DNA of 64,000 nucleotides from Vulcanimicrobiota bacterium (GCA_963169765.1 CAUJEN010000048.1:1-64000), one strand, 5' to 3'. Numbered from the stretch's first letter, positions 22,239 through 45,416 are shown. A program made the numbers and translations. The notes: a model not told the origin generated them from the sequence alone.

Positions 22239-22260
22239 GCTTCTTCGCGCCGCGCCAGGG

Positions 22261-25800: not shown

Positions 25801-26541
25801 CTGTCCACCGTGGCCATGAGCCGGGCCGACTGGACCGAAGCTGAGCTCATGCTCAAGGAAGCCCGCCAGCTCTCGATCGAGACCCGCGACGCCCGCCAGG
25901 CGGCCGAGTGCCAGGTCATTCTGGCCGACGTTCTCTACAGCCAGGGCAAGCTGCAAGCAGCCCTGGCCGCGGCCGACGAGGTGCTGATCGAAGGTCGCGC
26001 TCGCTGTGACCCCCAGCAAGAAGTGCACGCCCGCAATCTACGCTCGCTGGTGCTGAGCCTTTCGGGCCGCAGCGACGAGGCCCGGGCCTGCCTGGCCGAG
26101 GCCCGCCCCCTGGTGGAGGTGCGCGACGCCATCGGGGTGGCCAACTGGCGAGGCGCCTCGGCCCTGGCCGAAGGCCATCCCGCCGTGGCCCTTCCCCTGC
26201 TGCGCGGCGTCGACCGCCTTCCCTCACCCCACTGGTGCCGTCTGGGGGTCTTCTGGGCCAGCTATCTGGCCCTGCTGCGCGGAGAGTTGGCGCTGGGGGC
26301 GCGTGGGGCCCGCTACCTGCTCAACCGGGCCCGTTTCTTCCCACTCTGCGCCCCCGGGGCCTGGTTGTGCAACGGTCTGTGGCAGAGTCGAAGGGGGAAA
26401 GACGGTCGGCCCTCCCTGGAACGCAGCCTGGCCCTGGCCGAGGCGCAGCAAATGCCGCTGGAGGCGTCCCTGGCCGAGCACCACCTCGGCCGCGTCGCTC
26501 GGCTGGAGCTTGCGGTCGCAGGGGGCGGTCGCCCGGGTTGA
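22861..26541 (+). CDS. Multidomain regulator: two class III nucleotidyl cyclase domains + AAA/STAND-type ATPase + TPR-like helical repeats
   Basis: VLLADLCGFTRL...IAGDAPIVAFPG (cyclase 1), VLFLCLRKLDY...GIATGRVFCGIRGSPRRREYCLIGDRVNLAARLMQ (cyclase 2), Walker A LLEGEPGLGKSRL, long Ala/Leu-rich repeat tail; real start ATG 22861 not the ORF extreme 21835. Confidence 0.8.
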   Translation: MDRLASFVPPLLAGRPAGQPWLDRFPAAVLLADLCGFTRLAEELARQGPDGAERLSALLDRYFEQLFEIFHRHGGQVVKIAGDAPIVAFPGPLSEAVPRAAACALEAAALSQDGLTLRLGLGAGEAVLAGVGGHRGRWEFVLAGEPLEQASSAERLAQPGQVTVAEPVWAFLPDARREGPRLLESPPVPWLAESAAPGEELQAYLSSAVLDRLQTSDAWLAELRPVSVLFLCLRKLDYQAANVLERLHQAVLQSQQVLESEEASLIQCLMDDKGTILLAAFGVPRSHPDDALRAIRAGLELAPLGSIGIATGRVFCGIRGSPRRREYCLIGDRVNLAARLMQKGDALCDPETARLVRDRVQFEQLEPIALKGKSQTIAPHRPLGLSDSPSASAPLVGRKRERQQLERLLDGPGKLLLEGEPGLGKSRLVQDLLEECPLPVVLLQADPVGQGIPGSVFRELDRPDRDWLERHPLAPLAAELAGQSFSDNAATRSLTGAARGEALRELLLDLTDHWANQSYLVIVEDAHWLDSVSRGVLMQAPGRLLLVARPGHGLDGLERLGLDPLDEEAILALARARTGAQQLDARLLRLLREKAEGNPFFTEELLLALDGAGLLEQEGETLRLKGEPELLQLLDTVGGAITSRIDRLEPAHQLALKVASVVGRIFALAMVAEVRPAEAANDNLEAIFGELDRLELTPRLDTGRHAFKHALTREAAYNTLLYSQRRELHRAVAQREIDPVQLAHHWWEAGEPEQAYPYLAEVGERALHQGAFPEAAGLLRRALEAAPPQERARLSRLLAEACYGAGDLVECRRHLVSSLESKGCRVPRSRSSLWTSPHWWQFWLLERPFSVPGQAGRKLADWFDRSSVAALAGPTARLCGCPAVAPSAQMEAVLAWDRLTMVEALAGELDLSFHAGGELVARAEALGGPSPVLARAYAMMAAGCSTTLPLPRLADLYHKHSLQLARELGDPVLMARVLYCLSTVAMSRADWTEAELMLKEARQLSIETRDARQAAECQVILADVLYSQGKLQAALAAADEVLIEGRARCDPQQEVHARNLRSLVLSLSGRSDEARACLAEARPLVEVRDAIGVANWRGASALAEGHPAVALPLLRGVDRLPSPHWCRLGVFWASYLALLRGELALGARGARYLLNRARFFPLCAPGAWLCNGLWQSRRGKDGRPSLERSLALAEAQQMPLEASLAEHHLGRVARLELAVAGGGRPG

Positions 26542-27330: not shown

Positions 27331-28647
27331 TTGTGGGGGAGATGCGAGTTGACTTTCTCCGTATCCACTCTTCCCAAGGCCGAGCTGCAACGCATCATGG
27401 CTGCCCTTCGCTCGGGAGCAGTCCCTGAGCACGGCCTCGAGCACTTTGCCGTGGGCCTGGATCAGCCGATGGAGGCCATCCGTGAGGACCTGGGCCGGGT
27501 CTCGGGCGGCCGCGACAGTGCCTTCAAATTCATCCGTGGGGCCTACGGATCGGGAAAGACCTTCCTGGCCTCATTGATCGCCTCCGAAGCTGCCCGAGCC
27601 AACAAGATGCTGGTCTCCAAAGTCGAAGTCTCGAGCAACGAGTGCCCCATCTACAAGCTAGCCTCCCTCTACCGGGCGATCTGCCGCAACCTCAGCCACA
27701 ACAAGAAGAAGGGTGCTCTGGGGGCGGTCATCGAGCAATGGCTCTTTCTTCTCGAGGGTCAGGTACTGCAGAACAACGATGTCGCGGAGAACAGCGAGAC
27801 TTTCTTCGAGCTCGTGGGCCAGAAGGTCGAGATGCACCTGGTGCAACTCGACGAGCATGGAGGCACGCTGTCGAAACTGCTTCGCCGGTACCACAGGTTC
27901 AAGTTCGAGCAACGGTACGAAGACGCGCGGGCTGCTCTCGACTGGCTGGCCGGCAACGAGAATCTCCCCGCCAAGGTTCGCAGCAAGCTCGACGTCAAGG
28001 GCGTCATCCAGGACGACGAGGTCTGGGTGTACCTGCGCGGCCTCCTGGACATCGTGCGCTTCCAGTATCGCGGGCTGGTCCTGATCCTGGATGAGGCAGA
28101 GACGCAACTGAACCTTCTCCCGAAACAGCGCAAGAAAAGCTACGAGGTTCTGCGCGAGTTCGTGGACGCCATTCTGGCCAACCGCTACCCTGGACTCTAC
28201 CTGGTGGTCACCGGTACTCCGGAGCTCTTCGAGGACCAGGAGCGCGGCATTCCCACCCTGGTGCCACTGAATCAGAGAATTCTCCTCGACCGGTCCACCG
28301 GCTGGGTCAACTATCGCGGGCCCCAGATTCCGCTCCAGCCCTTCAATCGAGATCGACTGCTGCTGGTGGCAGAGAAGGTCTGCCAGCTGTACGGCGGTCA
28401 GGCCAGCAATCCAGACAGGTTCCAGGCGGCAGCTGGGGCGGGCTTTCAGGAGCACGCGGTAAGCTGTTTCGAGAAGATCTTTGAGGGCAAGTTCGAGGTC
28501 TCGCCTCGACTCTTTCTTCGGTTCTTCCTCCAGGCGCTTGATCTGACCGACCAGGAGCCGGAATATCAACCGCTCAGAGACTTTGTCCCGACCAGAGAAG
28601 CCGTTCTCGCCCTGGCCAACGAGGAGGAGCGAAAAGCGCTTGGCTGA
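27331..28647 (+). CDS. P-loop ATPase resembling the small BREX ATPase BrxD / N-terminal ATPase of PglY (DUF2791-like)
   Basis: Walker A RGAYGSGKTFLASL, Walker B GLVLILDEAETQ, ~440 aa; ORF starts with TTG at 27331, first in-frame ATG at 27397; family assignment from memory of domain pattern, not a search. Confidence 0.55.
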   Translation: MWGRCELTFSVSTLPKAELQRIMAALRSGAVPEHGLEHFAVGLDQPMEAIREDLGRVSGGRDSAFKFIRGAYGSGKTFLASLIASEAARANKMLVSKVEVSSNECPIYKLASLYRAICRNLSHNKKKGALGAVIEQWLFLLEGQVLQNNDVAENSETFFELVGQKVEMHLVQLDEHGGTLSKLLRRYHRFKFEQRYEDARAALDWLAGNENLPAKVRSKLDVKGVIQDDEVWVYLRGLLDIVRFQYRGLVLILDEAETQLNLLPKQRKKSYEVLREFVDAILANRYPGLYLVVTGTPELFEDQERGIPTLVPLNQRILLDRSTGWVNYRGPQIPLQPFNRDRLLLVAEKVCQLYGGQASNPDRFQAAAGAGFQEHAVSCFEKIFEGKFEVSPRLFLRFFLQALDLTDQEPEYQPLRDFVPTREAVLALANEEERKALG

Positions 28648-31600
28648 ACCCGACGAAGCCACGACCCTGTTGAGCCTGGGCTTGAGTGCCTCCAGGCTCC
28701 GCCAACTGGCGGCACTGGGTATCGATTCCCTGGAGGCGCTTCTCAGTTACGATCCGCTCGCACTGCGAGCGCGAACCGCCCTCTGGGAGGAGCTGGAGGA
28801 GGCGCTCCGGGACCTCGTCTGCGAGTTCCATCTCGCCACCCGGGTGGTCACCTTCTTGAAGACCAGGCCTCCCGAGCGTCCCCGGGCGCCTCAGTCGCTC
28901 CCCGATCAGGTCGCGCGCGTCCTGTCCAGCGAGGAGCGGCCGATCACGGTGCGCTACCTGCGCGACCGCCTGCGGCTCGACTTCCAGGTCACCAACCTGG
29001 TCGGGCTCGACGCGGTCCTTCGCGAGCACGAGGAAGTGATCGAGTATCCCTTCGGGCACCATCGCTGGCTCGGTCTGAGGGAGTGGGGAGATCGAGGCTG
29101 GCGCCAGGCCGCCACCGCTGCCTGGGTCGTCCTGCCGGTTCACCTGGAGCAGCTCGAGGCCTCCGAAGGCAAGCTGCCGGCCGACGCCATCCGAATCCTG
29201 AGCCAGCTTGCCGAGGAGCAGGGAGATGCTCGAGTTCTCGACCTGCTGTCACGCGTAGGCTCCACGGCCGATCGAGTGGCCGAGGCACCCGCCCCCAGGC
29301 GACAGGTGCTTGCGGAGGCTACCGATCCGCCGCGCCTGTTTGAAGGCCTGCACGCCGGAACCGACCTCAGCCAGTTCGCGGCTCGACTCCTGCGGGAGGT
29401 CGCACTGATTCGAGCGATGGGCATTCTAGAGTGGCCCTTCTCCCTCTGCCAGCTGCGCCTGAGCCAGGGCGATTCCATGATGTTGCGTCTCTGGGCGCGC
29501 CTGCTGAATCGCAGCCGAATCGAACGATGGTCCGAAGGAAACTGGCTGACTCTCGAGGGCCAGTCCTGTCGCGCGCGCGAGGTTCTCGGCTTGGTGTTCT
29601 GGACCCTGGCCTCTGAGGTCGCTCGTCGAGACGCACGCGAAGGGGACGCCTGGGGAGTCGTCATGCGCTGCTTCTCGGAGGAGGCCCAGACCGTCCTCTT
29701 CTCCCAGAAGGGCCCGACGCAGCTGCTGCGCTGGTTGCTCGAGGAAGCGGCGCAGACATTCGGGCTCAGGCAGGTCTTCGGCCAGGAAGGACAGGCCTGG
29801 TACAAGTGCCTGTTCCTGCAATTCGGCTTTACCCGTCAGGGGATCAGCCAGTTGCCCAGCTGGCTGAACTCCGGCACTCAGAACACGGTCGCCGTTCAGT
29901 ATCTGCGCGACAACTCCGCAGAGTTCCGGAACCTCTGGTCCGCGCTCAGCGCCTACCATACCCGGCCGGATCCCGTGCGCCACAAGCAGTTGACCGAGGT
30001 CTTGCGGGCCAGCTCCTTCGTCCTGCCGGACTGGCACGAGTCGATTCTCCTCCAGGCCCGTCGAGCCCGAGCGGAGAGCCCGGAGGGACAGGTCTCGGCC
30101 GGCCAGGCCTGGGTGCGGCTCGACTGGCCGGAAGGCCGGAGCCCGCGCTTTCTGTTGCCGCTGGCGGAGAATCTTCCCGACCTGGAGGAGTCGGGCTACG
30201 AGGTGCTCCTGGACGGGCGTTCGGCCGCCTGCCTGTATCGGCTGCCCGAGGGCTATCGGGCCCAACCGGAGGAGATCGAGCTTCGTCCCACCCTCTCCGA
30301 GGCCAACCTGACGCTGGTCGGCTACGACAGCGAGGAAACCCGTACCGAGGTCATCTCCCTGTGGGATCAGGAGAGCCCGGCTCTCTACTTCAGCCTCGAG
30401 ACCGGGCGCCGCGAGGAGCGACCGACTGGCCGGGCGCTCGCGGTTCTGACGTCGGAGGGCATTGAGCTGGCGGCGGGAGCCGACGAGAGGTTCCCGCTGC
30501 CCAACGGCTGTCAGCTCTGGCGGCTGGGCGCTGGCTGGACCCGCGAGCAGCAACTGCTCCAGGACGGAGACCCGGTTGCCGCTTCGGTGGCGGAGCGAGA
30601 CCCCGCCTGGGCCCAGCAGGTGACCGTCGCCCCGCAAGGGGACTGCGTTCTTCCCGGCGAGGTCACCCTGTGGGTGGCCGGGCTCCCCGAGGGGTGCACC
30701 CTGCGCTCATGCCGGGCCGGACAGCGCCCTTTGAAACTTGTTCCTCAGAATCTCGGTTTTCAGGGCGTCGTCCAGGTCGGCGCCGAGCTGACGAGCGCCC
30801 GCCTCCCCGTGTTTCTGAGCTTGCGTTATCAGAGCCGGAGCGTCCGATTGCGACGAGCGGTGGACCTGCCGGTGACGGGAGTCACGCTTCATGAGGGGGG
30901 CTGCTGGTCGCTTCTCCGAGGTCAGGAGAGCCTGACCGTCCGCCAGTTGCGCGAGGGGGTGCTGCGCTTTTATACCGGCTCCGACCCGCCCGGCGAGCAT
31001 GCCGTGCTGGAGGGTGCGCTGCTGGCCCATCGTCCTCGTGCCGGTTTCCAGAGCCTGGAGGGCCTGGAGGGCTATGGCGCGCCTCTCACCCTGACGCGCG
31101 GTCCCTACAACGCGTCCCACCCCGGGACCCGCCTCGTCTCCAGCCTGGTCAACCAGGGCCGGGTGCGCGCGATGCACCGGAAGGACGAGACGTTCGAGCT
31201 CCATTTCCACAAGCACCTCGAGGGCGGGCCCGAGCATACCCTTCTCTGGTGGGGGCAGGAGGTTCACCGGCTTCCGGCCTCCGACCTCGAGGTGTGCGAA
31301 GGCCCGGTCTGGGAAGGGAGCGTTCCCCCGGACGGGGCGCCGATGAAGGCGGTCGGGTTGAGCATCGCCGGCGAGTGCCGGGGCGCGTGGTGGGAGCCCC
31401 TGAGCGCGGACGACCCCCTGCCCGCGTCCGCCGCCCCCTGGCTCCGGTGGTTCGGCTTTCCGCTTCAGGACGAGCGTTGGAAAGAGTCGGCTCGCGAGCT
31501 CGTTCGCGCTCACCCGGTCGAGACCCTGACCGCCTGGCTCAAGGCGACCGGCCATGAGAATCTCCCCCTGAGGGACCTCTCCCCTGCCTGGCTTCAGGCG

Positions 31601-32191
31601 GTGGGTGAGCTGGTCCGGGGCTGGGCACCCCCGGCCGAGTCCTGCCGGGAGTTGTTGAGCCGGGTCGGCTGCCAGCCCCTGCTGGACGTCAGTCCCTTCT
31701 TTCTCTATCGCGTGGTGCGCAAGGCCGGGGTAGATCGCGAAGGGGTGCTCCTCGAGCTGGCCGAGGCCGAACATTTCGGGCAGTTGGCCCGGCAGGCCGA
31801 CCTCTGGCTGCGCCAAGCGGTGAACGAGATGAGGGTGGACGATCGGTTCGCGCGGCTCCTCGGGGAGAAGGTCCGGGATCTGTTCTTGTCCGACAAACAG
31901 CCCGATGCTCGCCAGCTCCAGAATATCGAGCTGGCCTGCAGCCGGCCGGCGTATCGCCGCTGGATGGCCGTGCAATTACTGACTGGAGGAAGGCTGGATG
32001 GCACGACTGCAAGCACTGGACCTCTCCCGCCTGCTGCGCGCGAGGGTGCTCGCGTTCACGGAGAGCGACGGGTTCCTGAGGGACCCGGAGCTCCGTCGCC
32101 TGGCTCTAAGCCTGTGGGCGGACAGGCCGGAGCGGGGCGGCCTCGTGTCCGACTTGTGGATCGAAGGGACCGTCCCCCACAAACTGAGTGA
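28583..32191 (+). CDS. Large (~1200 aa) protein with N-terminal tandem helix-hairpin-helix motifs; no recognisable catalytic domain
   Basis: LGLSASRLRQLAALGIDSLEALLSYDPLALR (HhH-like); long protein-like ORF; 5' end overlaps upstream gene by 64 bp (alt TTG start ~28668) and 3' end overlaps helicase start by 194 bp with a low-complexity tail. Confidence 0.55.
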   Translation: MSRPEKPFSPWPTRRSEKRLAEPDEATTLLSLGLSASRLRQLAALGIDSLEALLSYDPLALRARTALWEELEEALRDLVCEFHLATRVVTFLKTRPPERPRAPQSLPDQVARVLSSEERPITVRYLRDRLRLDFQVTNLVGLDAVLREHEEVIEYPFGHHRWLGLREWGDRGWRQAATAAWVVLPVHLEQLEASEGKLPADAIRILSQLAEEQGDARVLDLLSRVGSTADRVAEAPAPRRQVLAEATDPPRLFEGLHAGTDLSQFAARLLREVALIRAMGILEWPFSLCQLRLSQGDSMMLRLWARLLNRSRIERWSEGNWLTLEGQSCRAREVLGLVFWTLASEVARRDAREGDAWGVVMRCFSEEAQTVLFSQKGPTQLLRWLLEEAAQTFGLRQVFGQEGQAWYKCLFLQFGFTRQGISQLPSWLNSGTQNTVAVQYLRDNSAEFRNLWSALSAYHTRPDPVRHKQLTEVLRASSFVLPDWHESILLQARRARAESPEGQVSAGQAWVRLDWPEGRSPRFLLPLAENLPDLEESGYEVLLDGRSAACLYRLPEGYRAQPEEIELRPTLSEANLTLVGYDSEETRTEVISLWDQESPALYFSLETGRREERPTGRALAVLTSEGIELAAGADERFPLPNGCQLWRLGAGWTREQQLLQDGDPVAASVAERDPAWAQQVTVAPQGDCVLPGEVTLWVAGLPEGCTLRSCRAGQRPLKLVPQNLGFQGVVQVGAELTSARLPVFLSLRYQSRSVRLRRAVDLPVTGVTLHEGGCWSLLRGQESLTVRQLREGVLRFYTGSDPPGEHAVLEGALLAHRPRAGFQSLEGLEGYGAPLTLTRGPYNASHPGTRLVSSLVNQGRVRAMHRKDETFELHFHKHLEGGPEHTLLWWGQEVHRLPASDLEVCEGPVWEGSVPPDGAPMKAVGLSIAGECRGAWWEPLSADDPLPASAAPWLRWFGFPLQDERWKESARELVRAHPVETLTAWLKATGHENLPLRDLSPAWLQAVGELVRGWAPPAESCRELLSRVGCQPLLDVSPFFLYRVVRKAGVDREGVLLELAEAEHFGQLARQADLWLRQAVNEMRVDDRFARLLGEKVRDLFLSDKQPDARQLQNIELACSRPAYRRWMAVQLLTGGRLDGTTASTGPLPPAAREGARVHGERRVPEGPGAPSPGSKPVGGQAGAGRPRVRLVDRRDRPPQTE

Positions 32192-35100
32192 GCATGACCT
32201 CGGAGGGCTGGCTCGGGAGGGCGAGTTCCCGCTCCGATTGGCCGAGCACCTGGGCCGTCGCGGCATCTTCCCTCCGGGCCAGAAGCTGTATTCCCATCAG
32301 GAGGAAAGCCTGCGGGCCTCAAACCAGACCGGGGCCCGGCCCGCGGTGATCGTGACCGCGGGAACGGGCGGAGGAAAGACTGAAGCTTTTCTGTTTCCGA
32401 TGTTGCAGGCCATCGAGGACGCGCCCCGCCAGCCGTTCGGAGGGGTCCAGGCGCTCATCCTGTATCCGATGAATGCCCTGGTGAACGATCAGGTGGATCG
32501 CCTCACCAACTGGCTGGCGGGACAAAAGCATGTGCGCTTTGCGCACTTTACCTCCGACACCCCGGAGGACTGGGCCCACGCGGGAAGGATGGGAGTGCCC
32601 GAATGGGATGAGTCGCGCTGTCGAACCCGGCGCCAGGCCCGCGGCCTGGAGACGCACAAAGGAAAGAAGATCGATGACCCCGCGGAACGTCTGAGCGTTC
32701 CGAACATCTTGATCACGAACTACTCCATGCTCGAATACATGCTGGCCCGGCCTCAGGACCGGGTCTTCTTCGGGAGCGACCTGCAGGTCGTGGTCCTGGA
32801 TGAGGCCCATCTCTACACCGGTACTCTGGCGGCCGAGCTGACCTTGCTCCTGCGGCGAACGCTCGAGCGTTGCGGCAAGCGCGCAGAGGACGTCCTGCAC
32901 CTGGCGACCTCCGCCACCATCGGAACGGGCGCGGACGAGGAATTGCTCGAGTTTACCTCCGTGCTCTTTTCGAAGCCTCGCTGGCTGGTCAAGCTCCTGA
33001 GGGGTGTCCCGGCCGAGCCTGACTGGCCGGCGCCCCGTGCTCCCCGGGTCGAGCCGAGCGCAGACTCGTTTCTGGACGCCGACCGTAACGAGCTCAGCCT
33101 GCGAGCCACCACCATCCGACTGCTGGCCCGCCAGGACCGCCAGGAGGAAGAGCTGGTCGTGGACGAGCGGGAATGCCGACAACTGGCCCCGCTCCTGGCC
33201 ACCCTGGTGGAGGAGGAAACCGTGCAGCAAAGCCTGCGCGACTGCCAGGGACAGGTGGCCGGCTTCCTCTACGGCTGCCTGCGGCATGCGCCCGTCATGC
33301 AGCGGCTCGATCAGCTCCTGCGCGGCCGGCGATTCCAGACCGTCCCCCAACTCTCCCACGCGCTGCTCGGCCAGGACGATGCTCGGGGTCAGGAGGTCGC
33401 CTTACGCCTCCTGTCCCTCGGCTCCGCGGCTCGCCTTCACCTCAAAGAGCTGCCCCTGCTTCCCCATCGGCTGCATCTCATGGTGAGGCCTGCCAGCGGG
33501 CTCTCGGTCTGTTTGAGCTCGAGCTGCTCGGGGCCGCGCTGGGCGCCCTTCGGATGCCTGCAGGATGGCAATCGTGACGTCTGCGAGCACTGCGGACATC
33601 TCGTGCTCAGCCTGCTGCGCTGCTCCAACTGCGGAGAGGCGGCTCTGGGAGCGGACCGGGCCGGAGGGAAAGTCGTGGCGCACCAGCCCAGAGGCTTCAA
33701 GCCGCGCGCCGCCGAGCTGGTTCTCTGTCAGTCCGGCCGCCAGGGCACGCCATACCATCTCGACGCGCTGAAGGGCCGTCCTGTCGGGCCCGGGATGGGA
33801 ACGGAGCTCACCCTCGTGGAGGAGTGCCCCAACTGCGGGGATGAGCTGGACGCTTTTCGCGCCGTGGCCACTCCGGGCGGCTTCTTCCAGTCCATCGTGG
33901 CCGAGACCCTGCTGGCGGGAGTTCCCCCTCTCGTCGGCGAGCATCCTCCCCACATCCTCCCCGCGGAAGGCAGGCGGCTCCTGGCCTTCAGCGACAGCCG
34001 GGCCGAGGCCGCGCGGCTGGGTCCGCGCCTTCGGGTCCAGCACGAGCAGCAGGTCGTCCGCGCGGCCCTGGTGGACCTGCTTCGAGAGGGCGGCGGAGCC
34101 GACCCGGCGGTCATCGCCTACCGGCGCGCGCAGCTGGCCGACCTGCAGAAGAAGCTCACCCCCGAGCTTCCGGAGACCCTGGCCCGCGAGATTCGCGCCG
34201 ACATGGGCCGGGTCGAGGCGGAGTTGCTGGCCCTGGAGCAGGGCGGCACCATCGCGGACTGGGGGCGCAAGCTGGGAGAGCATAAGCTGCTCGAGCAGCT
34301 GCTCGACTTCGAGGGTGGCGAGCGCCACCAGTGGAAGGAGTGGAGCCAGCGGGTCTGGGCCGCCAATCACGCTCGGGTCAGGCTGCAGGCCGAGATGCGG
34401 CTGGGTAACGAGCTGGCGGCTCCCAACCGGCGGAGGTTCAACAACCTCGAGACCATCGGGTGGGCCGAGATCACTTATCCGGGCCTGGACCTCCTCGGCC
34501 CTCCGGAAGGCTTCCTGGGCGAGCTGCCCCGACGAGCGCGCCAGAGCCTGGCCCCGGCCTGGACCGAGCTGCTGGCAGCCTTGCTCGATTGCCTGCGCGG
34601 GGAGTTCGCGATCACTCTGGGCTCGCGCGAGCGCGATCTGCTGTGGCGCCCGGGCGACGTCCCCTACGGGCAGTGGTTCGAGCGGCCTCGCTTCATCGGC
34701 AAGCAAAGGCGCCAGCGCCTCCGCCGGTTCTTGCGAGCCGTGCTGGTCCAGGCAGGAATGGACGGAGACGAGGCCGAGAAGACGGCACCGGAGGTGCTGG
34801 CCGTGATCTTCGACCAGCTGGCGGGCAGGGCCCGCGACCGTCTCAAGAGCGAGGCCGGGTCCGGCCAGCTGCCCTGGCTCGAGGTTTACGCGGGCTACGT
34901 GACCGAGAAGGACGGAGTGACAACCGCCCTGCGCCTGCGCTTCCCCGAGTTGGGCCTGCGCCGGCCCACCCGCCTGTACCGCTGCCAGGTCAACGGGCGC
35001 GTCTGGCCCCGCTCGGTGCTGGGTTGCTCGCCGGACCCGGGCTCGGAGGTCACTCTCGAGGAGATCGCCCCGGAGGAGCTGGACCGCACGCCTCCCTTCA

Positions 35101-37199
35101 GCCGTGCTCGCCTGGAGTACGCGCAGAGTCCGGTTTTCCGCATCGGATTGTGGGCCGAGGAGCACAGCGCCCAGCTCTCTCCGGCGGAGGGGCGCCGCCT
35201 GCAAGAGCTCTTTCGGGCCGGCCTGCGGAATCTGCTCTCGGCCACCACCACCATGGAGCTCGGCATCGACATCGGGGGTCTCTCGGCGGCCTTTCTCTCC
35301 AACGTCCCGCCGGGCAAAGCGAACTACCTCCAGCGTGCCGGCCGCGTGGGACGCCGGGCGGACGGCAGCTCGATCGTCGTGACGGGCGCCCGCACGCTGC
35401 CGTATGACCGGGAGGTCTTTCAGCGCATGGGGGACTTCTTCGGGCGCAGCCTGCGCAAGCCCCAGGTCTTTCTCGACCGCATCCGGGTGGTCACCCGGCA
35501 CCTGCACGCCTGGCTCATGGGCGCCTTCTTCGGCCAGCTTTACCGGCCGACCCACCAGGTGGGCGCCATGCGTGCCTTCGGTCAGATGGGCTCCTTCTGC
35601 GGGAGGGCCGTGCCCGACCGGGTGGACAGGCACGCTCGGCCGCGTCCCGAGCTGATTCCGAGACCCCGCGCCGTGGTCGAAGGCGAGTTCATTCCCCCCG
35701 TCTGGTGGGACCAGTCCGCCGAGCAGCCCGAGGATGGCCTGGTGGTGCAGTTTCGGCGTTTCACGGCTTACGTGCGCGGGCCGGGCCGGGGGCAGCTCCA
35801 GCCGCTCTTGACCGAGCTCTTTCGAGGCACCGTCCTGAATCTCGAGTCAGCCTGGGACGCGACTCTCCAGGCAGCCGAGGACCAGTTCGCCAAAATCACC
35901 TCCGATTGGCTGCGCGAGTATGATCAGCTCGTCGGCAGCTGGCTGGCGGCCGAGGACGCCCGTCTGGCCAACTCGCTGCGCTACCAGTTGGGCTCCCTGG
36001 CCGGGGTCACGGTCATCGAGGCGCTGGCGGACGCCCAGTTCCTGCCTCGCTACGGGTTCCCCATCGGGCTCCTGCGGTTGAGGGTCGTGCTGGACGATCA
36101 GGACCTTCGCGAGCAGCGCGAGGAGGACCGTTACCGCCTGGAGCGCCCGGGCCTCCTGGCCCTCAGGGAGTATGTGCCGGGCAGCGAGATCCTGGTGGGC
36201 GGTCGGCTGATCACCAGCCGGGGCCTCCTCAAGCACTGGACCGGAGAGAACCTGGACGAGGCGTTCGGCCTGCAGATCCTGGCCCGGGAATGCCGTTTCA
36301 ATCACTTCTACTACACGACCGGCCGCGACCTGGGCCCCTGCCCCATTTGCGCGGACCCGCCCGAGACCCGCATCCGAACCCTGTTGCTGCCCCGGCACGG
36401 GTTCAGCACGGCCAAATGGGATCCGCCCCAGCAGGCTGCGCAGGCCAGTAGGGTGGGCTCGGTGGAGCGGGCCACCATCACGTTCCAGAAGGACGAGCAA
36501 GAGCTTCAGGACCAGAATTTCGGCGCCATCCCGGGTCTGGTGGCGCGCTACGCCTCCGAGGGGGAGATCCTGGTCTACAACCAGGGTGCCCACGAGTGCG
36601 GCTTCGCCATCTGCACCCGGTGCGGCTTTGCCGACAGCGAGAAGAAGCTGGGCCAGCAGGCCATGCACCTCCCGAAAGGGTTTGCCGATCACCTGCCTCT
36701 TCATCAAAAGGACGGGCCGCGGTGCTGGAAGGACGATCAGGTCACCGTCCTGCGCAATCGCGACCTGGCCGCCCGGCAGACGACCGACGTGCTCTTGCTG
36801 GACTGGTCGCGCGTCCTGGGCCGTGAGCTGCGCGACGAGATCCTGGTCCTGACCCTGACCGTGGCCCTGCAGCTGGCGGGTGCACGGCTGCTGGAGCTGG
36901 ACTCGCGGGAGCTGGGCTCGATGGTCGTTCCCCTGCGCCCCGACGAGTGGGGCGGGGTCGTGTACGACAACGTTCCCGGAGGCGCGGGGCACGTGCTCGA
37001 GCTCTACCGGCTCGGCTCCGCCTGGCTGCGCGAGGCCGAACGGCTCCTGTTCGTCAGTCCCGAGCATGACCAGCGCTGCAACAGCGCCTGCCTCGACTGC
37101 CTGATGAGTATCGACGCCCAGATTCTCCTGACCGAGGCGCGGCTCGAGCGCCGTCGGGCTCTCGGGGCCCTGCGCTCGGCTCTGGGAGCGGCCGTGTAA
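31998..37199 (+). CDS. SF2 DEAH-box helicase with C-terminal DUF1998/MrfA-type zinc-binding module (DruE / Lhr / BrxHI / DrmA+B-like)
   Basis: Motif I AVIVTAGTGGGKTEAF, Ia ILYPMNALVNDQ, II VVLDEAHLY, V-VI LSATTTMELGIDIGG...YLQRAGRVGRR; Cys clusters CPNCGDELD, CEHCGH...CSNCGE, CPICADP, CTRCGFAD; ATG 31998 with GGAGGA RBS. Confidence 0.85.
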   Translation: MARLQALDLSRLLRARVLAFTESDGFLRDPELRRLALSLWADRPERGGLVSDLWIEGTVPHKLSEHDLGGLAREGEFPLRLAEHLGRRGIFPPGQKLYSHQEESLRASNQTGARPAVIVTAGTGGGKTEAFLFPMLQAIEDAPRQPFGGVQALILYPMNALVNDQVDRLTNWLAGQKHVRFAHFTSDTPEDWAHAGRMGVPEWDESRCRTRRQARGLETHKGKKIDDPAERLSVPNILITNYSMLEYMLARPQDRVFFGSDLQVVVLDEAHLYTGTLAAELTLLLRRTLERCGKRAEDVLHLATSATIGTGADEELLEFTSVLFSKPRWLVKLLRGVPAEPDWPAPRAPRVEPSADSFLDADRNELSLRATTIRLLARQDRQEEELVVDERECRQLAPLLATLVEEETVQQSLRDCQGQVAGFLYGCLRHAPVMQRLDQLLRGRRFQTVPQLSHALLGQDDARGQEVALRLLSLGSAARLHLKELPLLPHRLHLMVRPASGLSVCLSSSCSGPRWAPFGCLQDGNRDVCEHCGHLVLSLLRCSNCGEAALGADRAGGKVVAHQPRGFKPRAAELVLCQSGRQGTPYHLDALKGRPVGPGMGTELTLVEECPNCGDELDAFRAVATPGGFFQSIVAETLLAGVPPLVGEHPPHILPAEGRRLLAFSDSRAEAARLGPRLRVQHEQQVVRAALVDLLREGGGADPAVIAYRRAQLADLQKKLTPELPETLAREIRADMGRVEAELLALEQGGTIADWGRKLGEHKLLEQLLDFEGGERHQWKEWSQRVWAANHARVRLQAEMRLGNELAAPNRRRFNNLETIGWAEITYPGLDLLGPPEGFLGELPRRARQSLAPAWTELLAALLDCLRGEFAITLGSRERDLLWRPGDVPYGQWFERPRFIGKQRRQRLRRFLRAVLVQAGMDGDEAEKTAPEVLAVIFDQLAGRARDRLKSEAGSGQLPWLEVYAGYVTEKDGVTTALRLRFPELGLRRPTRLYRCQVNGRVWPRSVLGCSPDPGSEVTLEEIAPEELDRTPPFSRARLEYAQSPVFRIGLWAEEHSAQLSPAEGRRLQELFRAGLRNLLSATTTMELGIDIGGLSAAFLSNVPPGKANYLQRAGRVGRRADGSSIVVTGARTLPYDREVFQRMGDFFGRSLRKPQVFLDRIRVVTRHLHAWLMGAFFGQLYRPTHQVGAMRAFGQMGSFCGRAVPDRVDRHARPRPELIPRPRAVVEGEFIPPVWWDQSAEQPEDGLVVQFRRFTAYVRGPGRGQLQPLLTELFRGTVLNLESAWDATLQAAEDQFAKITSDWLREYDQLVGSWLAAEDARLANSLRYQLGSLAGVTVIEALADAQFLPRYGFPIGLLRLRVVLDDQDLREQREEDRYRLERPGLLALREYVPGSEILVGGRLITSRGLLKHWTGENLDEAFGLQILARECRFNHFYYTTGRDLGPCPICADPPETRIRTLLLPRHGFSTAKWDPPQQAAQASRVGSVERATITFQKDEQELQDQNFGAIPGLVARYASEGEILVYNQGAHECGFAICTRCGFADSEKKLGQQAMHLPKGFADHLPLHQKDGPRCWKDDQVTVLRNRDLAARQTTDVLLLDWSRVLGRELRDEILVLTLTVALQLAGARLLELDSRELGSMVVPLRPDEWGGVVYDNVPGGAGHVLELYRLGSAWLREAERLLFVSPEHDQRCNSACLDCLMSIDAQILLTEARLERRRALGALRSALGAAV

Positions 37200-37226
37200 T
37201 GCGAAACGAGCTCTTGGAGGGATCTT

Positions 37227-40200
37227 ATGCCGCTTGACGGCCAGCACTGGAAAGCCATCTCGCCCAGCCAGTTCCCCTGGGAGGAAGAGGCCCTGGCCTG
37301 GTTGCGCCGCATTCTGGATCGGCCCTGGGCCCTGCGCGGCTGGTCCAACTTCGAGGTGGTGGATGGGCAGGGGCGCCGCTATGAGATCGACGCGCTGGTC
37401 CTGACCGTGCACGGGCTCTTCCTGGTCGAGATCAAGTCTTACTCGGGGCAGGTGCTGGCCGACCCCTACCAGCTCATCCGGCGCCAGGGGCAGGGAGCGC
37501 CCTTCGTGGAGACCAATCCGCTGTCTCTCACCAACCACAAGTGCCGCGTGCTGCGCTCGGCCCTGGGGCGCAACATCCCCCGCCTCGAGGCCGTGCTCTT
37601 TCTGAGCCACCCGGAGGTGCACCTCACGGTCAAGCCGGGCATCCCGCAGCACATCTACACGCGCAACACCCTGCCGGCTTTCCTTCGGAGCGCCGGTCGG
37701 CCGGTGATCGACAGCGCCACCGAGGCCCGAGTCGTGCAGGCCATGAAAGACAGCGGGATCAGCACGCAGACCCGGCGCAGCGTATTCGTGGGCGAGTACG
37801 TGCTGCAGACTCTGCTGGGCGAGGGCCCCGACTGGCAGGACTTTCTGGGCAAGCACCGCTCGATGGACCACGTGCGGCGCGTGCGGGCTTTCTCGGCCCG
37901 CCTCGAGGACCGGGAGGCTCGCGAGCGCGCCAAGCGCGCCGCCCAGCGAGAGTTCCGCCTGCTCGAGTGGATCAACCACGACGGGGTTCTCAAGCCCATC
38001 GACTACAAGGAGCACGAGCTGGGCCACTGCCTGATCTATCCCTTCTACCCGGACGCCGCCCGGCTGGACCACTTTTTGGCCACCCCCGAGCTGGGCGAGC
38101 GTCAGGGCCGGGCCCAACGTTTGAAGCTCTGGCGCCAGCTGGCCGACATCCTCAGGTATGCCCACGAGCGCAAGCTTTACCATCGCGCCCTGGCGCCCCA
38201 GAATGTGCTGATCCTGAGCCCGTCCACCGAGAGCCTGCGTCCTCTCATCATGAACTGGCAGACGGCCCGCGCCTCGGACCAGACCACCGGCACCGTGCAC
38301 CTCCAGGACCTGGTGGAAGACCAGACCACGGCCTACATGGCTCCCGAGGCCATGCTGTATCCGGAGAGCGCCGCCGAGCAGGCCGACCTCTTCTCGCTCG
38401 GTTGCCTCGGCTACTTCATCCTGAGCGGGCAGCCCCCGGCCAGCACGCAGGTCGAGCTGCAGACCCGGCTTCAGGAGTACCCTGGGCTCCGCCTCACGTC
38501 CGTGCTCGACGGCGTGCTGCCCGAGCTGGCGGAGCTGGTGGAGCGCTGCACGCATCCCGACCTGTCCGAGCGGCTGGATTCCGTGCCCGAGTTCCTGAGC
38601 CGGCTCGCCCGCGTGGAGGCGCTTCTGGCCGGCGAGCTGGAGCCCGCGGCCGAGGAGATCGATCCGGCCCGGGCCCAGCCCGGCGATCCCCTGGTGGGAG
38701 GTCTCCTCTTCCAGAAGCCCCTGGGCCAGGGCGGGGTGGCGGTCGCCTACCAGGTGCAGCGGGGCAACGAGACCCTGGTTCTCAAGGTGGCCCTGAAGGC
38801 CGAGAGCAACCAGCTGCTGGAGGACGAGGCGGAGGTGCTGGCCCGGCTCAACGACCGCCAAGTGGTGCAGCTTCGCCAGACCCTCAAGGTCTCCGACCGC
38901 CGCGCCCTGCTCTTGAGCTTCGCGGGTCCCGAGACCCTGGCCGAGCGTCTGCGCCGGGAGGGCCCGCTGCAGCTCGAGCTGTTGAGCCGTTTCGGAGACG
39001 ACCTGCTGCGCCTGGTCGAGGTGCTCGAGAAAGCGGGAGTCCATCACCGCGACCTCAAGCCGGCCAACCTCGGCGTTCTTCCGATGGGGGAGAACAACGA
39101 GCTGCGGCTGGTGCTCTTCGATTTCTCGCTCTCCCGGGTTCCCGTGGACCGGCTGGAGGTGGGCACGCGTGATTACCTGGACCCGTTCCTCAGCCTGCGC
39201 CGACCCCCTCGCTGGGATCTCTCCGCCGAGCGTTATGCCGCCGCACTGACCCTTTACGAGATGGCGACCGGCGTGCTGCCCCGCTGGGGTGACGGACAGA
39301 CCAACCCGGCCGTGGTGGCCTGCAAGCTGGTCCTGGAGGAGGAGCGCTTCCCCCCGGAGCTGCGGGCCAGCCTGGGTGGGTTCTTCCGGCGCGCCCTGGC
39401 TCGCGACGCCAGCCAGCGTTTCGACAATGCCGAGGAGCTGCGCACGGCCTTCCGCCAGGCGCTGGAGAGCCGCCAGGCGGAGGACCAGATCGGGGCCGAG
39501 CGTACGGACTGGAGCCAGGTCGCCGCCGCCACGCCGGTCACCGAGCTGGGCCTCAGCCCTGCGGGGGTTCAGGCTCTGGACCGGATGGGCATCCTGCGGG
39601 CCGGCGACCTCGTGGCCCTGACCCGGGCACGGCTCACGCGCGAGCGAGGGTTGGGCAGCCGGACCCGCCGCGAGCTTCTGGCCGTTCGGGATCGGCTGCT
39701 CGAGCTGCTCGGTCAGCCCGAGCCGGAGGTGGCTCCGGGGCAAGGGCTGGAAGGCCTGCTGGCGTTTCTCGAGCGCGCTGCCGACCCCGGCGAGCAGGCG
39801 CTGGCCCGCGTGTTTCTCCAGCCCGACCTCCACTGGCCTACGCTGCAGGAGCTGGCCCAGGCTCTGCGCGCCGGCCCCAACGAGCTGCGCCGGCAGATGC
39901 CCCGGTTGCGGCGGACCTGGCAGGAGGTCGAGGAGCTGTCTCCGGTCCTCGATCAGGTGGCCGAGCTGCTGGCGGGGCTCGGTGGCGTGGCTGTGGCCGA
40001 GGACGTGGTGCGGGCCCTTCTCATCGCGCGCGGCTCGACCTCCAACCAGCCGTCGGAGCGCCAGGGACGCGCCCGCGCCCTGCTGCGCGCCGCGCTCGAG
40101 CTCGAGGGCCTGAGCGAGACACCCCGGTTCTTCCATCAGCGGATGGAGGGCGACCGTCACCTGGTGGCCGCCCAGAACGCGCTGGTGCCCTATGCCCTGC

Positions 40201-41231
40201 GCCTGGGAGAGGTGGCCGATCAGCTCTCGAGCGAGGAGCCACTGCCTTCCCGCGCTCGGGTGCTCGAGCGCCTCCAGGAGCTTGCGCCCCCGGAGAGAGC
40301 CAGCCCGTTGACGGAGGCCTCGCTGCTGCGCCTGGCCGCGGGGATGGCCAGGCAGGCGGCCCTCTCGTCCCGAGGCGAGTTCTACCCGGTCGGAATGGAG
40401 GCGCGGCGGGCCCTGCTGCTGTCGCACGGGGCGCTTCTGGGAACCTGGTCGCTCACCCCGGCCCAGCTGGCCGAGCGCGTCAAGAGCCGCTATCCCGAGG
40501 CCCGGGACCTGCCTCTGCGGCCGGAGCTGGACCGGCTGCTGGCCGACCTGGAGCTGGACTTCGTGTGGAACGAGGAGAGCGGTGGCTACCATCGTCGCTT
40601 CGGGGGCCTGAACCTCTCCACGACCACTCCCAGCGGCTCGCGCGGGCTCCTCAAGCCGACCCAGGAGCCGATCCCGCAGGCCCAGCTTCACCAGCGTCTG
40701 GCGCGGCTGGTCCGCGAGCGCTCGCCCCTGGTGGTGACCTCCCGCTCGCGGGACCTGGAGAGCGCGCAGGCTGCCCTGGTGGAGCGCTGGGCCTTTCAGC
40801 CCGTGTCCGTGGAGGCGGCCCTGCTGGCCGCCCTGGAAGAGGTCGGCCGCGAGCGCAGGATTCCCTGGGAGACCCTGCTGCGCACCGATCGGGCCGGGCC
40901 CGACCACCCGGACTGGGGCCGCCTCCTGCAGGTGGTGCGACTGGCTCTGGCCCGGGTGGAAACCGAGCTCAAGCTCCGCTCGGGGCCCGTCTTGCTCGAG
41001 CGCCTGAGCCTGCTGGCCCGCTACCAGCCGGACCTCAAACTGGTCGAGGAGCTGCTGGCGTGCAGCGGCCAGCCGGGCTGCCCCGGGCCGGTCTGGGTCC
41101 TGACGGCTGTCCGCTCGGAGGGCGAGCTGCCCAGGGTGGACGGCCGGCCGGTGCCGCTGCCGGTGGCCACGCACCCGGTTTTCTTGCCGGCCAGCTGGCT
41201 GTATGAGAAGGCCGAGGCCGCGCCGGCCTGA
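37227..41231 (+). CDS. NERD domain + tandem Ser/Thr kinase-like domains (first degenerate, second canonical) + C-terminal HhH-containing extension; PglW-like
   Basis: NERD YEIDALVLTVHGLFLVEIKSYSG; kinase 1 with HRALAPQN (catalytic Asp replaced) ; kinase 2 with LVLKV, HRDLKPANL, DFS, GTRDYLDP; GGAGGG RBS 5 nt upstream of ATG 37227. Confidence 0.85.
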   Translation: MPLDGQHWKAISPSQFPWEEEALAWLRRILDRPWALRGWSNFEVVDGQGRRYEIDALVLTVHGLFLVEIKSYSGQVLADPYQLIRRQGQGAPFVETNPLSLTNHKCRVLRSALGRNIPRLEAVLFLSHPEVHLTVKPGIPQHIYTRNTLPAFLRSAGRPVIDSATEARVVQAMKDSGISTQTRRSVFVGEYVLQTLLGEGPDWQDFLGKHRSMDHVRRVRAFSARLEDREARERAKRAAQREFRLLEWINHDGVLKPIDYKEHELGHCLIYPFYPDAARLDHFLATPELGERQGRAQRLKLWRQLADILRYAHERKLYHRALAPQNVLILSPSTESLRPLIMNWQTARASDQTTGTVHLQDLVEDQTTAYMAPEAMLYPESAAEQADLFSLGCLGYFILSGQPPASTQVELQTRLQEYPGLRLTSVLDGVLPELAELVERCTHPDLSERLDSVPEFLSRLARVEALLAGELEPAAEEIDPARAQPGDPLVGGLLFQKPLGQGGVAVAYQVQRGNETLVLKVALKAESNQLLEDEAEVLARLNDRQVVQLRQTLKVSDRRALLLSFAGPETLAERLRREGPLQLELLSRFGDDLLRLVEVLEKAGVHHRDLKPANLGVLPMGENNELRLVLFDFSLSRVPVDRLEVGTRDYLDPFLSLRRPPRWDLSAERYAAALTLYEMATGVLPRWGDGQTNPAVVACKLVLEEERFPPELRASLGGFFRRALARDASQRFDNAEELRTAFRQALESRQAEDQIGAERTDWSQVAAATPVTELGLSPAGVQALDRMGILRAGDLVALTRARLTRERGLGSRTRRELLAVRDRLLELLGQPEPEVAPGQGLEGLLAFLERAADPGEQALARVFLQPDLHWPTLQELAQALRAGPNELRRQMPRLRRTWQEVEELSPVLDQVAELLAGLGGVAVAEDVVRALLIARGSTSNQPSERQGRARALLRAALELEGLSETPRFFHQRMEGDRHLVAAQNALVPYALRLGEVADQLSSEEPLPSRARVLERLQELAPPERASPLTEASLLRLAAGMARQAALSSRGEFYPVGMEARRALLLSHGALLGTWSLTPAQLAERVKSRYPEARDLPLRPELDRLLADLELDFVWNEESGGYHRRFGGLNLSTTTPSGSRGLLKPTQEPIPQAQLHQRLARLVRERSPLVVTSRSRDLESAQAALVERWAFQPVSVEAALLAALEEVGRERRIPWETLLRTDRAGPDHPDWGRLLQVVRLALARVETELKLRSGPVLLERLSLLARYQPDLKLVEELLACSGQPGCPGPVWVLTAVRSEGELPRVDGRPVPLPVATHPVFLPASWLYEKAEAAPA

Positions 41232-41261: not shown

Positions 41262-41392
41262 GGGGCGCATTGCGTCCACGGTATAAACTGGATTGGGAAG
41301 GTTTGTTTGGCAGGATACCTGTCGAATGCCGGCCCACGAGCTTTGGATCGAACACGAAGGATCGAGGTGCTCAGGTGGCGCGAGCGGATCTG
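41262..41392 (+). repeat. ~130-bp leader element (includes TATAAA box, GAGGTG RBS and first codons of the AAA+ gene), copy A; near-identical copy at 63204-63332
   Basis: Direct alignment: GGGAAGGTTTGTTTGGCAGG(G)ATACCTGTCGAA(T/G)GCCGGCCCACGAGC and GGATCGAGGTGCTCAGGTGGCGCGAGCGGATC identical in both copies. Confidence 0.85.
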
Positions 41393-42331
41393 TTACTGGA
41401 CCTGGTCAGGGCCGGGACGCAAGGGGATCAGGCGCGCTTTCGCAAGGTCGTCGAGGCCTTGATTGCGGAGGAGCGCTCGAAGCAACACCACATTCTAGCT
41501 GACCACCTGAGTGCTCAGCTTCGCGTCAACGGGAACGGGAGCAAGACCAGCGTCGCTTTTCAGCGAGCCAGCGACTATTTCACCTCATCGATACCGCAAA
41601 GGACCTTCACCGATCTGGTCCTACCCGAGCCGGTTCTGGAAGCTTGCCGCGAGATCGTCGAGGAGCACCATCGACGCGAGGTCCTTTTCTCCCACAGCCT
41701 GGAGCCGCGACATCGCATCCTGCTGACCGGCCCCCCCGGGAATGGAAAGACTAGCCTGGCGGAAGCTCTGGCCACGGAACTCATGGTGCCGTTCTATCGC
41801 CTTCGCTACGAGAAGGTGATCGGCAGCTACCTGGGCGAAACCGCGCAGCGGCTGGCCAACCTCTTCGTCGAGGCGAGGGCTCAACATTGCGTGCTGTTTC
41901 TCGACGAGTTCGAAACGCTGGGAAAGGAGCGCGGGGACGAGCACGAGACCGGTGAGATCAAGCGGGTCGTTTCGTCCTTGCTTCTGGAGGTGGATGCCCT
42001 GCCGAGCCACACGGTGATCGTCACCGCTACCAACCACCCCGAATTGCTTGACCGGGCAGTGTGGCGCCGTTTCCAGGTTCAGCTCGAGCTGCCGGCTCCG
42101 GGCCCGGCACAGATTCGCGAGTGGTGGCAACGTTATCAGGCCGCCACGGGCCTCAAGCTGAAGCGCAACATTGACAATCTGACCGAGCGCTTCCGAGGAG
42201 CAAGCTTCTCGGACCTGGAGAATTTTGGGGCAGACCTGCAGCGTCGCTTTGTCTTAAGTCTCCCCGAGGCCTCCGTGGAGACCCTTCTGAGCAAGAGACT
42301 CAAACGGTGGAAGCCCCGAAAGCAGAGCTGA
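41375..42331 (+). CDS. AAA+ ATPase (classical AAA clade)
   Basis: Walker A LLTGPPGNGKTSLA, Walker B CVLFLDEFE, sensor-1 TATN, Arg finger region RAVWRRF; no in-frame ATG, GTG at 41375 preceded by GAGGTG RBS (ORF opens with TTG at 41270). Confidence 0.8.
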   Translation: MARADLLLDLVRAGTQGDQARFRKVVEALIAEERSKQHHILADHLSAQLRVNGNGSKTSVAFQRASDYFTSSIPQRTFTDLVLPEPVLEACREIVEEHHRREVLFSHSLEPRHRILLTGPPGNGKTSLAEALATELMVPFYRLRYEKVIGSYLGETAQRLANLFVEARAQHCVLFLDEFETLGKERGDEHETGEIKRVVSSLLLEVDALPSHTVIVTATNHPELLDRAVWRRFQVQLELPAPGPAQIREWWQRYQAATGLKLKRNIDNLTERFRGASFSDLENFGADLQRRFVLSLPEASVETLLSKRLKRWKPRKQS

Positions 42332-42342
42332 GTCCGACCTGA

Positions 42343-44895: not shown

Positions 44896-45416
44896 TCTGA
44901 CCAAGCCCCTTCCGGCCGGGCGAGGCCGCGCCCGGGCTGCGCGAGAGGAGGCCGAGAAGAGCTTCGAAGAAAGGTGAAGTACTATCAATGTCGCCATGGA
45001 GCAAGTGGGGATGCCGTGCAGCAAAGCAGAGATTCTGAAGAGTTCCAAATTCCCGAGGGGAGGGGCTCCCGAGTGGGCAGGCTCTTGTGCTTGCCACCAG
45101 AGAAGCGAGATCTCATCCTTGCTTTGGCATCCAGCATGGCGCAAAAGCTTTACCTCCGCAGGGACGACATCAATATGGACACGTGCCGTAGCAGTCAGAA
45201 CACCGGATCGTTTTGGGCATGTGTGCTCGCGTCAGTCCGAGGGTAGTATCCTCCAAGAACGCGGACGACGGGGAAACCCCTCTGTGATTCGTTTTCCGGT
45301 GATTCTTGGCAGGAATTGCACTCTCGCCGCGAAGAGTTGCCCGTGCCGCGAGTACCTGCTTCAACTCAGAGTGTTCTGGACATATTCCAGCTTTGCCGTC
45401 AGGTCGGCACATCGCC

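Follow-up and report, generated by a model that had tools for sequence, protein, structure and literature searches.

A Druantia III-B-like gene pair combined with BrxD and PglW in a candidate anti-phage cassette of a Vulcanimicrobiota bacterium

Organization of the cassette

A cassette of four genes, specifying a BrxD ATPase, a large protein outside the catalogued families, a DruE-type helicase and a PglW protein, occupies positions 27331-41231 of a 64-kb stretch of DNA from a Vulcanimicrobiota bacterium (GCA_963169765.1 CAUJEN010000048.1:1-64000), referred to here as the window. It brings together proteins hitherto known solely from type-2 bacteriophage exclusion (BREX-2) and a gene pair resembling Druantia III-B, and it is analysed here as a candidate anti-phage module. 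The window has a GC content of ~66 %, and every open reading frame (ORF) of at least 280 amino acids in a plausible reading frame was scanned. A preliminary description, made from the sequence alone, had reported four co-directional genes with overlaps of 64 and 194 bp and a gap of 27 bp; all four were recovered on the plus strand at matching coordinates.

Gene 1 (27331-28647; 438 amino acids as the longest ORF) encodes BrxD, an AAA+ ATPase of the ORC/Cdc6 type. It is followed by gene 2 (28583-32191; 1202 amino acids as an ORF and 1183 when started at 28640) for a DruH-like partner protein, by gene 3 (31998-37199; 1733 amino acids) for a compact DruE-type superfamily 2 helicase of the YprA/MrfA family, and by gene 4 (37227-41231; 1334 amino acids) for a full-length PglW. 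The GC content at third codon positions is 0.78-0.90 across the four ORFs, which is typical of real genes at the GC content of the window. The overlaps and the gap were measured on the longest ORFs. The same cassette is present on a contig from a metagenome-assembled genome (GCA_013328875.1 JAANMY010001901). On the identical public contig, the gene caller started gene 1 at 27349 (432 amino acids) and gene 2 at 28640, so that the overlap of 64 bp, which holds for the longest ORFs, is reduced to 8 bp. As judged from the sequence, the 194-bp overlap between genes 2 and 3 is probably real, because the ATG of gene 3 at 31998 is backed by homologues that align from residue 1. The overlap (31998-32191) arises from the unconserved tail of gene 2 (32003-32191; residues 1122-1183), which runs into the start of gene 3 in another frame and is predicted to be disordered (pLDDT <45). 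Homologues do not have this tail and terminate at or close to the start of the helicase gene.

The helicase and its large partner protein

Gene 3 had been described as a helicase with MrfA-type cysteine clusters, and this assignment was upheld. The PADLOC model DruE3 (PDLC00037) gave 692 bits as against 82 bits for BrxHI, a model on which DruE of Escherichia coli scores equally low. The domains DEAD, Helicase_C and MZB were detected by Pfam, and both MZB cysteine clusters, DVCEHCGH and CNSACLDC, are present. When compared with solved DruE structures, the protein matched 9tu7 with E=1e-81. Its alignment to the 2055-position DruE3 profile stops at position 1676, and the C-terminal PLD region of the 2114-residue E. 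coli DruE is not present in the 1733 residues of gene 3, for which no match to a PLD or other nuclease domain was obtained. Compact DruE proteins without PLD domains characterize subtype III-B (10.64898/2026.05.13.724758; PMC12458937). DruE of subtype III-A carries a PLD nuclease, and the III-A DruH has been reported as an exonuclease.

Gene 2 matched nothing in Pfam, PADLOC v2 or NCBIfam, even at E=10. PglX, PglY, PglZ and canonical DruH were rejected as identities for its product on these grounds, and an ordinary BREX-2 reading of the gene, which the preliminary description had considered, thus fails. A helix-hairpin-helix (HhH) signature had also been assigned to gene 2; no HhH domain is detected by Pfam, and only a resemblance at the level of a motif is left of this claim. 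A word-index search returned only three distant relatives, all encoded beside a helicase of ~1700 amino acids with DEAD, Helicase_C and MZB domains. An exhaustive profile search (E<=1e-3) delimited a family of 815 clusters at 50 % identity, with a common core of ~950 amino acids and variable N-terminal extensions, which in the relatives bear RNA polymerase alpha-CTD HhH domains (RNA_pol_A_CTD), sigma-70 region 4 (Sigma70_r4) or TerB. Weak PglW matches of gene 2 relatives are confined to the alpha-CTD-like region. Kinase fusions were considered as a Rosetta-stone link between the gene 2 family and PglW, and none were found.

The AlphaFold2 model of the gene 2 product (pLDDT 86.8, pTM 0.74) predicts a succession of distinct regions. 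The N-terminal extension (28640-29330; approximately residues 1-230 of the 1183-residue form), of a kind confined to the long forms of the family, is modelled as helical and includes a motif resembling HhH as well as a winged-helix-like unit. The core helical domain (29357-30079) contains the motifs that are most conserved in alignments of the family, A-E-x2-R-R...E-G-x2-W near 29595-29650 and LQFGFT. It is followed by an all-beta region (30107-31399; residues 493-918, ~430 residues), the strands of which are predicted to form some six Ig-like beta-sandwich domains in a row, and by a C-terminal helical domain (31424-31984; residues 929-1115, pLDDT >90) in which W966, W984 and R989, among other residues, are conserved. 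In a Foldseek comparison with the PDB, tandem-Ig proteins such as LIF-R, titin, KIT, neurofascin and Dscam were returned; the PDB set used for the sequence and Foldseek comparisons held no DruH structure.

DruH, as solved by cryo-electron microscopy, consists of a helical N-domain, a chain of Ig-like domains and a helical C-domain, and matches to Ig proteins were also obtained in one of the two preprints concerned (10.64898/2026.05.13.724313; 10.64898/2026.05.12.722862). The layout predicted for gene 2 (helical, about six Ig-like domains, helical) is the same. The only stretch that hhalign paired between the two families is a hydrophobic helix followed by A-E-x2-R-R...W, a motif that is 93-100 % conserved in the gene 2 family as well as in canonical DruH and has the same relative position in both, at the beginning of the core helical domain (~29595-29650 in the window, residues 65-91 of E. 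coli DruH at locus L061). In a preprint, R22, K28 and E64 are given as essential N-domain residues of DruH of Pseudomonas aeruginosa. When hhalign was applied domain by domain, matching domains gave P values of 0.008 (N-domain versus N-domain), 0.026 and 0.055, and mismatched domains 0.13 and 0.2; this post hoc comparison of sequence profiles is suggestive of a correspondence between the domains of gene 2 and those of DruH. The gene 2 product is DruH-like in the sense that it is equivalent to DruH in position and, by its predicted model, in architecture, and it is probably a remote homologue of DruH.

Relatives of gene 2 were found at 39 loci in a metagenome scan. Both genes occur at 27 loci besides the window, and in 26 of these the gene 2 member lies directly upstream of a DruE-like helicase gene, the exception being a rearranged locus (L058). 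Where the contig continues downstream, the DruE-like gene, which has 35-45 % identity to gene 3, begins tens of bases to a few hundred bases further on. The same pair is borne by a plasmid of Roseomonas mucosa, where it was recognized with a profile hidden Markov model (HMM); tblastn of gene 2 against plasmids gave no match, and viral contigs, scanned with an alignment of gene 2, gave none either. A scan of genome contigs with gene 3 alone yielded one distant locus. Genes 2 and 3 are in essence a Druantia III-type pair, which is usually found alone. DruH and DruE suffice for defence in Mycobacterium smegmatis and E. coli (PMC13316683; 10.64898/2026.05.13.724758), the tested M. smegmatis system consisting of a DruH of 1132 amino acids (MSMEG_1253) and a DruE of 1667 amino acids (PMC13316683).

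Another juxtaposition of Druantia and BREX-like genes was encountered on a plasmid of Rhodobacter sp. CZR27 (L070, 1-6980), in which canonical DruH and DruE genes directly follow genes for DUF1156 and DUF499 proteins, components of BREX-related systems.

PglW and the three-gene core

Gene 4 had been likened to PglW on account of a NERD domain, a pseudokinase (HRA) and a kinase (HRD, DFS), and motifs and family scores agree with this. The PADLOC PglW model matched residues 6-1331, that is, the full length, with 1203 bits, and the NCBIfam model BREX_PglW gave 1197.8 bits at a cutoff of 990. The Pfam domains are NERD, two Pkinase domains and RNA_pol_A_CTD. The NERD nuclease domain (~37278-37580) has an intact D..ExK motif (EIDALV / LVEIK). 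It is followed by the pseudokinase with HRA (~37911-38576), by a Ser/Thr kinase (~38715-39425) that is active as judged by its motifs (VLKVALK, HRD and DFS) and by an alpha-CTD-like HhH (~39528-39677); the C-terminal half of the protein is of the winged helix-turn-helix (wHTH)/iSTAND type.

The nearest relatives of gene 4, P0155, P0158, P0161 and P0173 (52, 42, 41 and 40 % identity, respectively), are each encoded directly downstream of a DruE-like gene, either with no space between the two genes or with an overlap of 1-4 bases. DruE is in turn preceded by a gene of the gene 2 family at the loci of P0155, P0158 and P0161; the contigs with P0173 break off within the helicase gene, and the upstream neighbour is out of view. 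In a neighbour-joining tree of 120 PglW proteins, the protein from the window and five others, of 1320-1347 amino acids, form a clade of six, throughout which the catalytic motifs are kept. All five clade members that were looked up, gene 4 included (41-52 % identity among them), directly follow a DruE-like helicase; for P0173 the tree had led to the expectation of this adjacency, which was borne out. P0157, 43 % identical to gene 4, falls outside the clade and has the canonical PglW-PglX arrangement (L050). Because all looked-up PglWs of the subclade directly follow such a helicase, the three-gene core of a gene 2-like gene, DruE and PglW is recurrent. PglW of the gene 4 type thus co-occurs with a pair of the genes 2 and 3 type at four further independent loci. 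Seen from the side of gene 2, such triads are a minority. Searched as far as the contigs reach, to a maximum of 10 kb of flanking DNA, the triad loci L048, L052, L053 and L059 revealed no PglX, PglY or PglZ.

BrxD and the BREX core genes

That gene 1 encodes a BrxD-like P-loop ATPase was borne out by PADLOC (BrxD, 358 bits), by Pfam (BrxC_BrxD, 337 bits) and by the NCBIfam equivalog BREX_BrxD, the cutoff of which (350) is just exceeded with 354.3 bits. The Walker A (GAYGSGKT) and Walker B (LVLILDEAE) motifs are both present. The preliminary description would have counted it against itself if genes 1 and 4 never accompanied genes 2 and 3 elsewhere; for PglW the outcome is in its favour, and for BrxD it is so in part, at L058, in rearranged form. 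The order at this locus is a DruE-like gene (44 % identity), a NERD-helicase gene, a gene 2-like gene (29-34 %), BrxD (P0282, 41 %) and PglW (38 %). The NERD-helicase of L058 (4554-6242), which separates DruE from the gene 2-like gene, is NERD-UvrD-like. At one of the other triads (L052, 721-2091), the place that BrxD has in the window is taken by a gene for an ORC/Cdc6-type ATPase with ATPase_2, wHTH and DUF234 assignments.

The long forms of gene 2 (1140-1245 amino acids), which carry the N-terminal extension, are those found with BrxD; no BrxD is encoded near the short forms (~875 amino acids) of the triads L052 and L053. The N-terminal extension may be a BrxD- or BREX-linked part of the protein. 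Further co-occurrence of BrxD with long forms may be indicated by two proteins of the gene 2 type that share a contig size with a BrxD: by this measure P0010 and P0281 both map to a contig of 12,618 bp, and P0032 and P0287 to one of 26,786 bp.

The core genes of BREX-2 were sought throughout the window. No ORF of the scanned size matched a PglX or MmeI-type methyltransferase, and tblastn with PglX of L050 gave a best E value of 0.07. For PglZ, no Pfam or PADLOC match was obtained and the best tblastn hit with PglZ of L055 had E=0.56; for PglY, there was no family match and the best hit with PglY of L055 had E=1.0. An ordinary BREX-2 system hidden in the window was rejected on the strength of these HMM and tblastn results. 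The earlier observation that neither a methyltransferase nor a phosphatase accompanies the cassette therefore extends to the whole 64 kb.

Function and origin of the cassette

The reading preferred here, with a probability of roughly 0.55, takes the cassette for an anti-phage module in which a Druantia III-B-like pair has PglW fixed downstream and, in this case, also BrxD upstream. In its favour are the conserved order of genes 2 and 3, the PglW subclade that follows DruE-like helicases and the renewed presence of all four genes, in another order, in L058.

A number of findings weigh against this reading. Gene 2 and 40 relatives did not match PADLOC DruH3 or NCBIfam YjiT_fam, on which DruH of E. 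coli (L061) scores 1830 and 1264 bits, respectively. Full-length hhalign of 81 gene 2 family members against nine canonical DruH proteins gave a nonsignificant E value of 0.09, and hmmsearch of the gene 2 family against canonical DruH was negative. Structure prediction, which had been proposed for gene 2, thus returned a DruH-type layout in a protein that no DruH sequence model recognizes. The closest relatives of BrxD (44-47 % identity) belong to ordinary PglY-PglZ-BrxD loci, and no BrxD was found within 10 kb of the other triads. PglW was lacking from all 16 evaluable gene 2/DruE pairs found through gene 2, and because of this PglW is dispensable for the pair. Two findings concern the BREX core: at L058 a PglX gene lies 4.7 kb from PglW, and in the nearest relative a gene 2-like protein (P0011), a PglW (P0329) and a BrxD (P0275) all map to a contig of 71,667 bp, a co-location read from matching contig sizes. 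P0275 adjoins PglY-PglZ, with no BrxHI after it, and L048 and L055, from this nearest relative, share no DNA. Because BREX core genes occur near the L058 module and on the contig of the nearest relative, autonomy of the cassette from BREX-2 is uncertain, and the methylation independence put forward in the preliminary description is weakened by the PglX of L058 and by PglY-PglZ-BrxD on the relative's triad contig.

The frequency with which the gene 2/DruE pair stands alone bears on whether there is a single system at all. Genes 2 and 3 could be a self-sufficient Druantia III-B-like system lying between remnants of a decayed BREX-2 system (BrxD and PglW), as would suit the sufficiency of DruH and DruE in M. 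smegmatis and E. coli (PMC13316683; 10.64898/2026.05.13.724758), the lack of conservation of BrxD in other triads and the character of the window as a defence island with Iet, a GmrSD-like gene and a DrmD-like helicase. Such a juxtaposition is improbable, however. DruE and PglW are adjacent at four other loci, where the proteins are only 40-55 % identical to those of the window; at these loci the helicase gene ends at the PglW start codon or runs past it, and the PglWs group in a separate clade. Neither a chance neighbourhood nor decay predicts this recurrent adjacency and the dedicated clade. PglW and BrxD are, moreover, full length with intact motifs, and all four genes are together again, though rearranged, in L058.

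The proximity of BREX core genes in relatives raises a different explanation, namely a type-2 BREX (Pgl) system split in two, of which the cassette would be one half and whose PglX, PglY and PglZ would be encoded outside the window or at another place in the genome, with the DruH-like protein and DruE replacing BrxHI in a methylation-dependent defence. The Pgl system has been characterized (PMC4365076), and BrxD is closely paired with the helicase BrxHI in canonical BREX-2 (PMC12839542), a dyad that the position of BrxD beside a helicase module in the window recalls. BrxD and PglW both pass the NCBI equivalog cutoffs for BREX proteins. L058 has all four genes with PglX only 4.7 kb away, and the gene 2-like protein, PglW and the PglY-PglZ-adjoining BrxD of the nearest relative are assigned to its 71,667-bp contig. 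The Pgl system of Streptomyces coelicolor is split into two operons, pglWX and pglYZ, and ~13 kb of the 77-kb source contig lie outside the window. Against this, the window contains no PglX, PglY or PglZ within ~27 kb upstream or ~23 kb downstream of the cassette, the flanks being filled by Iet, a DUF262 gene, a gene for a giant ATPase with an SNF2 helicase gene, and housekeeping genes. Three independent triads lack the BREX core in their 10-kb flanks. PglW normally adjoins PglX, as in L050, whereas the PglWs of the triads constitute a clade that is coupled to the helicase, and the co-location in the nearest relative was deduced from contig sizes. A split BREX-2 system is the main rival of the preferred reading and is regarded as less probable.

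If the cassette is an anti-phage module built around the Druantia III-B-like pair, phage DNA that is single-stranded or forked during replication would be recognized and processed by the DruH-like protein and DruE, the latter moving in the 3'->5' direction, as would be expected from work on Druantia III-A and the mycobacterial system. Because the compact DruE has no nuclease domain, PglW could supply the effector side through its intact PD-(D/E)xK nuclease of the NERD domain. Its kinase, its DNA-binding wHTH modules and its inactive-STAND C-terminal half may provide signalling and sensing. BrxD might load or activate the helicase, following the proposal made for BrxD and BrxHI (PMC12839542). 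A stricter version, in which the triad is self-sufficient and methylation-independent, BrxD is an optional loader and a captured PglW takes the place of the PLD nuclease, is put forward only tentatively.

Relation to known defence systems

The cassette is built from known kinds of components and is not categorically new; it is of interest mainly as a link between BREX-2 and Druantia. The combination as such, which the preliminary description had called undescribed, has no entry in PADLOC v2, NCBIfam or Pfam, and a literature search found no publication in which PglW is named along with Druantia or BrxD along with DruE. The same description regarded the assortment as a hybrid. Genes 2 and 3 turn out to be a Druantia III-B-like pair with additions, and the assortment is not without precedent.

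Like Druantia III-B, the cassette has a large partner with no recognized domain directly upstream of a YprA helicase of ~1700 amino acids (DEAD, Helicase_C, MZB) without PLD, and its pair is close in size to that of M. smegmatis (1132 + 1667 amino acids there, 1183 + 1733 here). The predicted fold of gene 2 has the layout of DruH. The protein differs from the DruH of Druantia III in belonging to a separate, uncatalogued sequence family that has no match to DruH3 or YjiT_fam (YjiT / STY4851). Unlike Druantia III-B, the cassette is not a two-gene system: PglW has a fixed place downstream, both here and at four other loci, and BrxD lies upstream in the window, neither of which is a feature of the described Druantia types.

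With BREX-2 the cassette has in common BrxD and PglW, which are bona fide family members by curated cutoffs, and the location of BrxD beside a helicase module. In a BREX survey of 2026, PglW was specific to type-2 BREX (PMC12839542). The cassette differs from BREX-2 in that PglX methyltransferase, PglZ and PglY are not encoded in the window, in that the helicase is of the YprA/DruE type with MZB and not a Lhr/Ski2-like BrxHI, and in the position of PglW after the helicase instead of before PglX.

ARMADA, DISARM and other YprA systems (PMC12458937) likewise join a YprA helicase to proteins borrowed from BREX. Bell et al. (2025) stressed the pairing of YprA with BrxHII-like and PglX-like proteins (PMC12458937); the parts borrowed here are BrxD and PglW, not BrxHII and PglX, and no methyltransferase is present. 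The main text of that survey of YprA helicases makes no mention of a kinase, PglW or BrxD (PMC12458937). The succession of NERD, pseudokinase and kinase is also seen in MADS (the MAD6 kinase) and in NERD-kinase variants of DndF. Gene 4, however, scores 250.2 bits on the NCBIfam model antiphage_MADS6, for which the cutoff is 460, and its full-length match is to PglW. Other mad or Dnd genes are not present, save for a weak mad8-like match of IetA.

Little is understood of PglW and BrxD compared with most other components of BREX. If the cassette acts alone, it would offer a simpler setting of three or four genes in which to study the roles of the NERD and kinase domains of PglW and the effect of BrxD on a helicase, and if the triad is indeed self-sufficient it would be the first system to connect BREX-2 and Druantia functionally. 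If it is part of a split BREX-2 system, the helicase slot of BREX-2 could evidently be filled by a Druantia pair, which would be informative on modularity, albeit less surprising. Because the models of current defence finders miss the large DruH-like partner family (the 815 clusters mentioned above), many Druantia III-B-like systems are probably unannotated.

Genomic surroundings

The left 16 kb of the window are made up of housekeeping genes, and two cyclase genes are present from ~17 kb. On the minus strand of the left part (12020-14482) is a gene for an 820-residue protein that combines, unusually for bacteria, the shoulder domain of major vault protein with an SPFH/Band-7 region. The genes described next are on the plus strand. 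The first of the cyclase genes (17319-19193) encodes a CHASE2-adenylate/guanylate cyclase; the second (21835-26541) encodes a giant STAND-like protein composed of cyclase, AAA_16 and TPR regions. Both are situated just upstream of the cassette and have only weak PycC-like matches.

Downstream, a complete IetA/IetS pair (AAA ATPase and subtilase; 41270-44895) follows PglW after a gap of 39 bp, with PADLOC scores of 452 and 982 bits. The next genes (45306-48623) are an ORF of 501 amino acids that has no family match and, 10 bp further on, a gene for a 600-residue GmrSD_N/DUF262 protein (Pfam, 100 bits; PADLOC PDC-M55C, 83 bits); the two may constitute a two-gene unit. The region at 48764-58980 encodes a protein of 2507 amino acids, with a sacsin-type ATPase N-terminus and weak TmtA matches, the gene for which overlaps by 4 bp with that of a DrmD-like SNF2 helicase. 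This helicase scored 879 bits on the PADLOC model DrmD; DrmA, DrmB and a methylase are not present, and the pair formed by the giant protein and the helicase is unclassified.

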